Shown: positions 13,130 to 15,502 of the stretch, one piece after another
How positions within the stretch are numbered: the first letter of the stretch is position 1
Layout: the number at the start of each line of letters is the position of its first letter
From: Tenuifilaceae bacterium
GTDB taxonomy: Bacteria > Bacteroidota > Bacteroidia > Bacteroidales > Tenuifilaceae
NCBI GenBank assembly: GCA_035380045.1
Contig: DAOSWM010000025.1
Span: 1 to 39,911, forward strand
Direction: 5' to 3'
DNA length: 39,911 nucleotides
Position numbers and translations under genes: made by a program
Notes under the pieces: model-generated
The model's input: only the letters and a program-made list of their open reading frames with translations
Told to the model about the DNA's origin: nothing
Database searches by the model: none

Positions 13130-15502
13130 ATGAAGTTTTTAAAAAATATGAGCATCAAACAAAGAATTCAACTTTTGGTTGTCACCCTAATGGTTGTACT
13201 CTTTTCTGCTTCTGCCATTATAGCATACTACATGCTCCGCAAACAATCACAAATATCCACTGATAAGCAAACGATGCTATACCTCGGTCAGCTGGAAAAA
13301 ATTATAACCCTCATTAACGAAAACACTGAACCTGGCTTCGATCACAACGACTACATCCAAATTAAACCATACTTCACCCAAAACCCCTACTTTAAAACCG
13401 ATTACCCTTTTCTAATCGACATTTCTGGCAACTATCTGATTCATCTATACAAAGAAGGTCAGAAATTCCCGCGTGAGCAACTAAAAGAAATGCTCACTAA
13501 CCCTGAAAAAAAAGGTGTAATTATATACGAAGACTATAAGAACGCCCAGCAACAGATCGTTTCACTTTATTTCAAAAAAATTGAACCCTACAACTCTTTC
13601 GTTGCGATTCCCATAAATCATGATGAGGCGTTCTCCCACCTGCAAAACAGCATACTAATTCTTTTAGCCATTGCGATAGCATGCACCCTCATTTCCTTTT
13701 TTATTATCAGGAGAACCTTAAACCCACTGATAAAGGCAATTAACACAGTAAGTAAAAGTCTTAACCTCCTGTCAACAGGACAGGTAGCTCCAAAGATTAA
13801 TTATTTACAAAATGACGAGGTTGGACAAATTGTTCTACCGCTCAATTCTCTTATTGATGGGGTTCAACGAACAACGCTCTTTGCAAAAAGAATAGGTAAA
13901 AGTGAACTCGATGTTGAATTCATCACCATGGGGGAAAATGATGAGCTTGGTAATTCGTTGCTTGAGCTGAAAAACAGCATGCTAAAAACTGCAAAGGAAA
14001 ACGAACAACGAAAACTTCAGGATGAGCAACGGAACTGGAGTACTTCTGGAATTGCAAAGTTTGGTGATATCCTGCGTCAAAACAACAACAACCTTCAGTT
14101 TCTCTCCGACAGTGTTATTCAAAATTTAGTTAACTATCTCAACGCAAACCAGGGAGGCCTATTTATTCTTAACGAATCCGATAACACCCCATACCTTGAA
14201 CTCATTTCGGCTTTCGCATTCAACCGTAAAAAGGTTAAAACAAAAACTATCCATGTAGGAGAGGGACTCGTAGGGAATTGTGCAATAGAAAAACAAACTA
14301 TTTACCTAAAAGAAATTCCCGAAGATTACATTGAGATTACGTCTGGGCTTGGTGATGCTCCTCCAAGTTCGCTTCTCATTGTACCCCTCAAGCTTGAAGA
14401 TAAAATTTTTGGAGTAGTTGAACTTGCTTCATTTAATGAGTTTCAACCTCATGAAATTGAATTCGTTGAAATAATAGGAGAAAGCATCGCCTCTACCCTC
14501 TCCGCTGTGAAAAATAACATCCGAACCAATGAGCTCCTAGAACAATCGCAGCAACAACGTGAAGAAATGGCTGCTCAGGAGGAGGAAATGCGGCAGAACA
14601 TGGAGGAAATGCAAGCCACGCAGGAAGAGATGGCACGCAAAACCCTCGAGATGGAAGGTATGACATCTGCCATTAATGAATCGTTAGCTTTTGCGGAGCT
14701 AACCGAGGAGGGAAACTTCATAATGGCGAATCCAAACTTTTTAAGCCTAACAGGTTACGGAAAAACAGAAATTGAGAATAAACGTATCAACGACTTCATT
14801 CACTCCGACGAGGCTGCGATCTTCAACAAAAACTGGAAGAACATTGTGATAGGCGAACCCTTTAAGGGAACGCTCAAGTGGGTGAACCATAGCGAAGAGG
14901 AATTGTATGTGCTTGCAAGCATAAGTCCTGCCTTCGATGAAAGCGGACGTATTTTTAAAATATTCTTCCTGGGTCAGGATGTTAGCGAATCAAAAAAAAT
15001 TGAGTTGAAAGCCCAAGCGCAAGCCGAAGAGATTGAAAAGAGTTTAATGGAACTCGAGATGGAACAGGAACTATCCAAGCAACGCGAAGAGGAAATGGAT
15101 GCTTTGCTTCAAGCCCTCGACACCACCTGCCTTGTAACACAATTTGAACCCGATGGTCGCATTACATACATCAACAATAAAAACGTTGAAACACTTGGCG
15201 ATCCAAAAAGCAAAATTGAAGGGAAACTCCATTCCGAACTTGATTTTCAAGCTAAAAATAATCCCCAAGAGTACAAACAGTTCTGGGAAGACTTGCTTCT
15301 GGGCATTCAAAAAACCAGAGAATTTTCACTCAACGTTAGCGGAAAAAATATCTGGATTTCAGAACACTACACCCCTATTAAAAATACAGAAGGGAAAGTT
15401 ATTAAAATTATTAACATCGGAATCGACATATCTGCCTCGAAAGACACGGAAAAAAAATTGAGGGAAACTGTTAACTCCTTAAAAAAGGACAAGGAAAAGT
15501 AA
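13130..15502 (+). CDS. Membrane sensor protein: TM-periplasmic region-TM-HAMP-GAF-coiled coil-PAS-coiled coil-PAS, with no recognisable output domain
   Basis: A TM helix, a ~150-aa extracytoplasmic region and a second TM helix ([19 protein letters not shown]) are followed by a HAMP-like segment. The GAF motif is [33 protein letters not shown]. The EE-heptad helix [24 protein letters not shown] resembles MCP methylation helices. Two PAS-like blocks follow. No kinase, cyclase or phosphatase domain is present. Confidence 0.7.
   Translation: [790 protein letters not shown]

Follow-up and report, generated by a model that had tools for sequence, protein, structure and literature searches.

Background

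Methylation and demethylation by CheR and CheB is the textbook mechanism of sensory adaptation and has been characterized almost only on chemoreceptors. A class of other methyl-acceptors, termed MAC, was reportedly described in 2010 by Wuichet and Zhulin. In the passages of a 2022 preprint that deal with them, MAC proteins are predicted methyl-acceptors distinct from methyl-accepting chemotaxis proteins (MCPs) and linked to CheB and CheR, with neither CheA nor CheW present; the same passages distinguish MAC1, in which CheB and CheR are fused, from MAC2, in which they are separate. The preprint calls MAC proteins experimentally uncharacterised in any respect. In Bacillus cereus, RsbK has the architecture CHASE3-HAMP-GAF-S-helix-HK-CA-REC, and its signalling helix (S-helix) is methylated by the CheR-type enzyme RsbM from the same operon (PMC4574943; PMC12848376). 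The signal from RsbK reaches the RsbV/RsbW partner switch by way of RsbY, a PP2C phosphatase, and 127 RsbK-like kinases in 10 phyla have been reported (PMC4574943; PMC12848376). RsbM was characterised as an orphan methyltransferase that has no partner esterase, and the RsbK S-helix also binds the REC domain of RsbK, a docking that is strengthened by methylation (PMC4574943). The present work concerns a stretch of 39,911 nucleotides from a Tenuifilaceae bacterium (GenBank assembly GCA_035380045.1, contig DAOSWM010000025.1), referred to below as the window, which encodes two membrane sensor proteins of 790 and 870 residues (p790 and p870). Both carry a helix with heptad-spaced glutamate pairs (EE pairs) behind a GAF domain, and both are encoded close to cheR and cheB genes.

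The composition of the helix, its relatives and its gene neighbourhood suggest that the EE-heptad stretches are the methylatable S-helix of a sensor module that is adapted by CheR and CheB but is not a chemoreceptor. We regard this as probable, with some reserve. The idea had already been put forward in an initial annotation of the window. It is sound but not new, since RsbK/RsbM and the MAC class precede it, and the novelty implied at the time was overstated: the MAC class (2010) and the work on RsbK and RsbM (2012-2015) already carry the idea.

Glutamate-pair helices in p790 and p870

In p790, residues 477-504 (nucleotides 14558-14641, counted from R477) hold four heptad-spaced acidic pairs, E478/E479, E485/E486, E492/E493 and E499/E500, preceded by an upstream pair E471/Q472. 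The EE stretch begins 20 residues past the Pfam GAF domain (residues 323-457). The four pairs of p870, Q325/E326, E332/E333, E339/E340 and E346/E347, lie in residues 325-352 (nucleotides 18725-18808), which read as the heptads QELKENE, EELRQNA, EEMRATH and EELEKSN. The initial annotation had placed the two repeats at 14530-14660 and 18700-18830, and they were found within these limits. A degenerate DNA pattern, (GAR GAR HTN N13)x3, had three matches in the window, all of them in these two helices, and none in 100 dinucleotide shuffles.

The description of the repeats as EE followed by small residues needs amendment: the residue next to the pair is always M or L. What stands is that the classical EExxA(S/T) form occurs once per protein, as EEMQAT in p790 and EEMRAT in p870 (a short-motif match only), with EEMAAQ as a partial match. 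In the chemoreceptor Tsr, residues 296-315 show heptad-spaced acidic pairs in which the second residue is the site, followed by xxA(S/T), and EEMQAT and EEMRAT reproduce this pattern; the Tsr stretch used earlier for comparison was quoted correctly and lies within Tsr 292-344. The methylation sites of the Tsr MH1 helix in this stretch are Q297, E304 and Q311.

In neither protein did Pfam give a match to MCPsignal (PF00015) at E<=0.01. HisKA, HATPase and REC are likewise missing from the Pfam matches of both proteins, which place PAS domains downstream of the helix and, in p870, SpoIIE in addition. A HAMP domain is called in the Tenuifilum thalassicum orthologue of p790. When the heptad register is read from the sequence, position a is occupied by Met or Leu, position d by the polar residues Gln, Gln, Asn and Thr, and positions f and g by the EE pairs. 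In view of this register the post-GAF helix is predicted to be a marginal coiled coil, the stability of which should respond to charge neutralisation. A database search with the helix alone returned only 15 short fragments, which carried no domain information.

The window has a G+C content of 41%, and the relevant genes form a run on the + strand from cheR1 to a TerB-ABC gene. The transmembrane segments are abbreviated TM in the following list of features.

12264-13103, + strand: CheR1, canonical CheR-type glutamate methyltransferase, 279 residues (Pfam CheR 6.3e-38 and CheR_N)
13130-15502, + strand: p790, 2 TM-(HAMP)-GAF-S-helix-PAS-PAS, without an output domain (Pfam GAF 323-457, PAS 520-622 and 654-767)
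14501-14665, + strand: post-GAF signalling helix of p790, residues about 458-512, with the EE heptads at 14558-14641
15530-16360, + strand: CheR2, CheR paralogue with degenerate motifs for binding S-adenosylmethionine (AdoMet), 276 residues (Pfam CheR 1.8e-19)
16367-16927, + strand: CheB methylesterase/deamidase, catalytic domain only, no REC, 186 residues (Pfam CheB_methylest 2e-48)
16940-17749, + strand: small TM-coiled-coil-GAF protein, 269 residues (Pfam GAF_2)
17753-20365, + strand: p870, 2 TM-GAF-S-helix-PAS-PAS-PP2C phosphatase, SiaA-like (Pfam GAF 168-304, two PAS, SpoIIE 668-869; NCBIfam SiaA 5.5e-50)
18725-18808, + strand: EE heptads of p870 (residues 325-352), inside a helix of residues about 305-376
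20404-20979, + strand: SiaB-family protein kinase, 191 residues (NCBIfam SiaB_fam_kinase 178 bits, cutoff 85; Pfam DUF6272 2.2e-44)
20995-21378, + strand: SiaC-family regulatory phosphoprotein, 127 residues (Pfam SiaC 4.4e-42, 143 bits, cutoff 24.5; NCBIfam SiaC 1e-24)
21420-24509, + strand: TerB-ABC ATPase-ABC-2 permease fusion, 1029 residues (Pfam)

The window thus holds two CheR genes and one CheB gene. CheR1 lies 27 nucleotides upstream of p790 and CheR2 lies 28 nucleotides downstream of it. The placement of CheR (now CheR2, 15530-16360) and CheB (16367-16927) between the two sensor genes agrees with the initial annotation, the gene inventory of which had missed CheR1 and the gene for the TM-GAF protein (16940-17749). 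The latter protein has no helix after its GAF domain, and this domain is paralogous to the GAF domains of p790 and p870. The genes for the PP2C phosphatase, the SiaB-family kinase and the SiaC-family phosphoprotein stand together, and the last of these three proteins is the presumed substrate of both the p870 phosphatase and the SiaB-like kinase. No MCP, CheA, CheW or GGDEF protein, including a SiaD diguanylate cyclase, was found by Pfam among the scanned ORFs (open reading frames) of the window; the scan covered all but six ORFs at 29709-33725, the translations of which look like products of ribosomal and translation genes (rpl13, rpsI, rpsB, tsf, pyrH and frr). Because a SiaD-like cyclase is absent, the TerB-ABC fusion may be a target of the switch. 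A second, unrelated PP2C sensor of 1126 residues is encoded at 162-3542; it has Reg_prop beta-propeller repeats, Y_Y_Y and a C-terminal SpoIIE domain, and no EE helix.

Relatives of the helix

One genome per species (185,579 species) was surveyed with the DNA pattern given above, and the first 120 blocks, each 8 kb long at most, were taken as an arbitrary sample. Among the 118 motif ORFs in these blocks, 61 are fused to CheR/CheB domains and 13 more have CheR/CheB elsewhere in the block. This makes 74 of 118 (63%) linked to the enzymes, and many of the remaining 44 run off the block ends.

Three types of helix can be distinguished. Type A consists of NEELQSTNEEL repeats in proteins of the arrangement CheB_methylest-CheR-...-helix-PAS_10-...-HisKA-HATPase. 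In type B, EELQAQQEELRVxNEEL directly follows the GAF domain of CHASE3/HAMP-GAF-helix-HisKA-HATPase-REC hybrid kinases, and cheR directly adjoins the kinase gene in 8 of 11 evaluable cases (seven downstream, followed by cheB where the sequence sufficed, and one upstream). Type C, to which the helices of the window belong, has EE[LM]RQNxEE[LMI]xxT[QH]EE after the GAF domain of Bacteroidota (HAMP)-GAF-helix-PAS proteins. The 16-residue signature of type C recurs in more than 120 metagenomic loci. The proteins with a type C helix make up a very large family of paralogues, the genes of which are often arrayed in tandem (loci L161, L162, L218 and L240); in these four loci two or three paralogous GAF-helix-PAS genes lie in tandem, with no CheR/CheB in the fetched flanks. 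Some Bacteroidota proteins have two or three copies of an invariant EEMRQNxEELxATQEE helix (L160 2596-5943, L141, L201, L230). The copies are spaced by 171 residues in L160, L141 and L201 and apparently alternate with PAS domains.

The GAF domain and helix of the window are homologous to types B and C: 24 survey ORFs were matched by phmmer, with E values of about 1e-13 to 1e-84. Type B includes members from Bacillales, which come from Paenibacillus athensensis (L099), P. taichungensis (L025) and a Planococcaceae representative (L091) and have the domain architecture published for RsbK; in L099 the next gene downstream is of the CheR type. In a MAFFT alignment the helices of p790 and p870 match those of Bacillales RsbK-like proteins column for column, the sequence of L099 being LLGESQMMTEELQTQSEELQAQSEELQMQQEQ. 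Against the Paenibacillus and Planococcaceae proteins phmmer gave E values of about 1e-19 to 1e-28, varying with the window protein used as query. String searches of the literature returned nothing on the motif and nothing on MAC proteins, and a search for CheB-CheR fusions gave noise only.

The methyltransferases and the methylesterase

CheR1 aligns with B. subtilis CheR (5FTW) at its AdoMet motifs, IWHAGCSTGQEVYS and IFASDLNTD, and CheB with T. maritima CheB (3SFT) at the catalytic Ser, His and Asp positions. These alignments indicate that both enzymes retain their catalytic motifs. In CheR2, AGCSTGEE is replaced by GNFDSGED and ATDI by CSII, and the paralogues from other loci that align with CheR2 show the same loss. 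Their variants include PNCVTGGE and similar forms, with ASxIS instead of ATDI (several metagenome loci and, for example, L121 7805-8641 and L242 12753-13586). A probable pseudo-enzyme, CheR2 perhaps acts as a reader or adaptor for the helix.

A HMMER search of 1.84 billion representatives gave stand-alone, REC-less CheBs of about 190 residues as the nearest relatives of the window CheB, and none of the longer CheB matches in that search carries the helix. CheR1 scores 151-184 bits against CheRs adjoining GAF-helix kinases and 80 bits against the CheR of the Alkaliflexus Che core. Taken over CheB, CheR1 and CheR2, the scores are 113-184 bits against enzymes beside GAF-helix (type B) kinases and 62-81 bits against the Alkaliflexus Che-core CheB-REC and CheR. 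Because the scores against the neighbours of type B kinases are far higher, the CheR/CheB lineage of the window appears to travel with GAF-helix proteins and not with the chemotaxis core.

Conservation of the helix and of the gene module

The 120 listed orthologues of p870 are 68-100% identical to it, and one of them is from Tenuifilum thalassicum. In these 120 sequences E332, E339/E340 and E347 are invariant, E333 is replaced by Q in one and E346 by D in 23. The counterparts of p790 in other lineages, GAF-helix-PAS-PAS proteins in the same no-output slot, form the p625 family, in which about 30 consecutive residues of the helix are invariant in 119 orthologues (61-99% identity), the flanks being far less conserved. 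Residues that the search pattern left free are also fixed: in 125 distinct metagenomic type C helices, E(-1) is found in 125/125, A(+11) in 114/125 and Q(-2) in 105/125. At the second place of the upstream pair, 86 type C helices have E and 22 have Q, and D and K do not occur there. In one p870-like protein EEQL stands at the second heptad. An interchange of E and Q was considered as a signature of methylation sites, but it holds at the upstream pairs only, and since the three core pairs are invariant E, little weight is placed on it.

Two entries in databases touch these proteins. Many p870 orthologues (P0016 among them) carry PF28175.1 in precomputed Pfam annotation. The UniRef name of the no-output orthologue from Geofilum rubicundum (P0321) is 'Methyl-accepting chemotaxis protein'; the protein lacks MCPsignal, and the name is an annotator's guess that coincides with the present hypothesis.

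The genes of the window form a conserved module of eight, comprising a no-output GAF-helix-PAS-PAS protein, CheR, the second CheR (CheR'), REC-less CheB, a TM-GAF protein of about 260 residues, the GAF-helix-PAS-PAS-PP2C protein, and SiaB-like and SiaC-like proteins. It is kept in Tenuifilum thalassicum (CP041345.1), in a second Bacteroidales lineage (L244), in Alkaliflexus, in Plebeiibacterium and in a metagenome-assembled genome (MAG) labelled Cytophagaceae (L246). T. thalassicum has the genes in the same order as the window, starting with cheR1 and ending with the ABC transporter. The TM-GAF gene stands between cheB and the PP2C gene in every examined locus that has both (including L121 9212-9985, L242 14154-14927 and L246 8822-9631), and the TerB-ABC gene is found downstream in L121, L242, L243 and L244 and is absent from L246.

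In the fetched flanks of the T. thalassicum, L244 and L246 loci no MCP or Che core was found. In Alkaliflexus imshenetskii (L242, KI912105.1, 1-21878) and Plebeiibacterium sediminum (L243) the module directly follows a complete set of chemosensory genes, which consists of a DUF4154/YfiR-like protein, MCP, STAS, REC, Hpt, CheA, two CheW, CheR, a 299-residue HATPase protein, CheD and CheB-REC. This Marinilabiliaceae supercluster therefore has two enzyme sets, with three CheR and two CheB genes, and its Che and partner-switch components are mixed. A gene for a DUF4154 (YfiR/HmsC-like) protein recurs in different lineages at the edges of clusters of CheR/CheB and GAF-helix genes (L224 6680-7198, L242 1-278, L243 148-660) and may hint at a link to cyclic di-GMP or periplasmic signalling.

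Possible mechanism and alternative explanations

It is from the anatomy of the proteins, their homology, gene linkage, enzyme lineage and catalytic motifs that we infer methylation itself, its sites and its effect on output. In the proposed mechanism p790 and p870 would be membrane-anchored dimers, the long post-GAF helices of which pair in parallel as a coiled coil of marginal stability. Signals received by the membrane and GAF parts would alter the packing of this post-GAF helix pair. CheR1 would methyl-esterify the heptad-spaced pairs at their second Glu, and CheB, which as a REC-less enzyme would be unregulated, would strip the methyl groups. Charge neutralisation could then shift the packing or register of the helices and bias the downstream PAS domains and the SiaA-like PP2C domain, and how far the SiaC-like switch protein is phosphorylated would depend on the balance between PP2C and the SiaB-like kinase. 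The no-output protein, p790 here and p625 elsewhere, would be the primary methyl-acceptor and probably works together with p870 and the small TM-GAF protein, while CheR2 may serve as a non-catalytic reader or adaptor.

Several observations weigh against methylation of the helix. CheR/CheB genes lie within 1 kb of 20 of 131 type C ORFs (about 15%), so that about 85% of the helix proteins lack them at this distance. Adjacency was found for 4 of 44 ORFs flanked on either side by 1 kb or more, for 3 of 23 flanked by 2 kb or more, and for none of the five evaluable loci in the genome-survey sample. The three core EE pairs are almost never Q-encoded in orthologues, unlike many MCP sites. Outside the Tenuifilaceae the pairs of p870-type helices degenerate, to ENEDQLRKNAHEMIAAQEEL in Alkaliflexus and KNEEKLRKSAAEMIEAQDEL in L246, while CheR, CheR' and CheB are kept. 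The methylation helices of MCPs belong to an antiparallel four-helix bundle, whereas a single parallel helix pair would run through between the domains of the window proteins. A phmmer search of the Protein Data Bank (PDB) with the helix matched helical proteins of de novo design but not a single MCP; homology to the methylation helices of MCPs therefore finds no support in the sequence, and of the resemblance to Tsr drawn in the initial annotation only the short motif is left. An AlphaFold2 monomer model of p870, built with 31 orthologues, has this region helical but is uninformative, because the predicted local distance difference test (pLDDT) score is below 50 for residues 329-403; it supports no conclusion on packing or register, and the modelled break at 339-345 is not trustworthy.

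Much of this would fit a scheme in which the helix is a conserved coiled-coil transmitter from GAF to PAS, with EE pairs that serve dynamics or electrostatics, while CheR and CheB act on an MCP elsewhere, as in the Marinilabiliaceae supercluster. An MCP gene with EEVSTS-type sites of the classical form is found in the same array, about 8 kb upstream, in both Alkaliflexus and Plebeiibacterium. We consider this scheme unlikely, though a serious contender. The MCP of the Marinilabiliaceae supercluster has its own CheR, CheD and CheB-REC, and the module enzymes are of the distinct lineage shared with GAF-helix kinases. The module persists in three examined loci with no MCP in the fetched flanks, and the homologous S-helix of RsbK is experimentally methylated (PMC4574943). 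Low adjacency does not discriminate in favour of an MCP elsewhere. As MCP genes are themselves mostly unlinked to cheR and cheB, it is not diagnostic. We would estimate the adjacency rate of type C to be far above that of a random locus, and it resembles that of scattered MCP genes. Adjacency as the sole criterion was dropped in view of the 15% for type C, and for the same reason the argument rests on homology, enzyme lineage and conservation of the module. The degeneration of the pairs bears on which protein would be modified. Where those of the PP2C protein degenerate (Marinilabiliaceae and the Cytophagaceae-labelled MAG), the no-output partner retains a perfect motif, which makes p790 a better methyl-acceptor candidate than p870; p870 may be methylated in some lineages only.

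The thirty consecutive invariant residues also suggest a protein-protein interface, and the helix could mainly be a docking or assembly surface that binds CheR2 or joins p790, p870 and the TM-GAF protein into hetero-oligomers; methylation would then have little or no regulatory role. The module conserves a CheR paralogue without AdoMet motifs as well as three paralogous GAF proteins, and the RsbK S-helix is also a REC-binding surface (PMC4574943). We hold this to be quite improbable as the whole explanation. CheR1 and CheB are retained beside it in intact form throughout; docking and methylation are moreover compatible, as methylation of RsbK strengthens its docking (PMC4574943). Finally, Glu-rich heptads are common in coiled coils, and a few unrelated survey proteins have such repeats with no CheR/CheB nearby (L024, L033, L045, L084, L107). 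The EE heptads might accordingly be generic coiled-coil or low-complexity composition that neighbours CheR/CheB by chance, the reading that the initial annotation had itself named as fatal to its proposal. It is hardly credible: zero chance matches are expected in the window, 63% of the survey matches are linked to CheR/CheB, the 16-residue signature recurs in more than 120 metagenomic loci, and residues outside the search pattern are fixed as well. Together with the invariance of the p625 helix, the shuffles, the survey linkage and these fixed residues effectively refute it.

The methylatable S-helix is thus the explanation that we favour. The proposal of a candidate CheR/CheB substrate on a non-MCP scaffold is supported by the survey linkage, the RsbK-like homology, the enzyme lineage, the MCP-free loci and the missing MCPsignal domain. 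A wider scheme can be sketched, which we think rather doubtful in its full extent. The module would be a self-contained, chemoreceptor-independent adaptation device in which CheR and REC-less CheB write and erase marks on a no-output 'memory' protein, the dead CheR paralogue reads them, and the resulting state gates the PP2C/SiaB/SiaC switch. In Marinilabiliaceae, where it adjoins a complete MCP-CheA pathway, adaptation of the chemotaxis kind and Ser/Thr partner switching would make up one circuit, and the hundreds of unlinked Bacteroidota helix proteins would be a hitherto unrecognised, MCP-like receptor family served in trans by the enzymes of the module.

RsbK/RsbM is one experimental non-MCP case and has no cognate esterase; the locus described here offers a compact version with writer and eraser. 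Because it also has a cultured host, Tenuifilum thalassicum, and a simple readout in SiaC-like phosphorylation by way of the fused PP2C, it can be tested directly whether reversible methylation gives adaptation to a pathway that is neither a kinase pathway nor chemotaxis. The analysis also flags a very large family of Bacteroidota sensors with an almost invariant helix of 16 to 30 residues.

Comparison with known systems

The classical MCPs share with the window proteins the heptad-spaced acidic pairs, as in LEETAAS and MEQLTAT of Tsr compared to REEMAAQ and MEEMQAT of the window, as well as CheR and CheB, which in the window would be the cognate enzymes. Like the helix family, they have many paralogues that are mostly unlinked to cheR and cheB. 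They differ in that MCPsignal and the tip that binds CheA and CheW are absent from the window proteins, and the output is a phosphatase instead of CheA.

On the output side the closest system is SiaABCD of Pseudomonas aeruginosa, which likewise has a SiaA-like PP2C phosphatase, a SiaB-family kinase and a SiaC-family phosphoprotein in the same order. Its diguanylate cyclase SiaD has no counterpart among the scanned window ORFs, and p870, other than SiaA, has a GAF-S-helix-PAS input and is linked to CheR/CheB. The NCBIfam SiaA score of p870 is 170.6 bits against an equivalog cutoff of 700, and the SiaC match is also below its equivalog cutoff; these proteins are therefore members of the families and not orthologues.

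For the MAC proteins the comparison is with the descriptions in the passages of the preprint considered here. MAC1, with fused CheB-CheR, matches type A with its NEELQSTNEEL helices, and MAC2, with separate CheB and CheR, matches the arrangement in the window, which is set beside MAC by description only. Common to both are, as described, a coiled coil with CheB and CheR and no CheA or CheW (in our case within the window). MAC proteins are described there with receptor and kinase functions, whereas the window proteins, having no HisKA or HATPase, are not kinases.

RsbK and RsbM are closest in the arrangement of the sensor. In both systems a GAF domain is followed by a helix with EE heptads, a link that runs via the Paenibacillus and Planococcaceae homologues and not via the sequence of RsbK itself (WP_002197482.1). 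The methylated residues of RsbK were reportedly given in 2012 as Glu439 and Glu446, which are seven residues apart. A CheR-type gene adjoins in both systems, and at the end of the pathway a PP2C phosphatase acts on a partner-switch protein. The window proteins lack the HisKA, HATPase and REC domains of RsbK; the helix leads to two PAS domains, which are followed by nothing in p790 and by the fused PP2C domain in p870. The switch is of the SiaB/SiaC type instead of RsbV/RsbW/sigma-B, and where RsbM has no esterase the window provides one, a dedicated CheB without REC, along with a second CheR that is degenerate. What is new in this locus compared to the described systems is the coupling of an S-helix to PAS domains and a PP2C/SiaB/SiaC switch, together with a dedicated esterase and a degenerate CheR paralogue.

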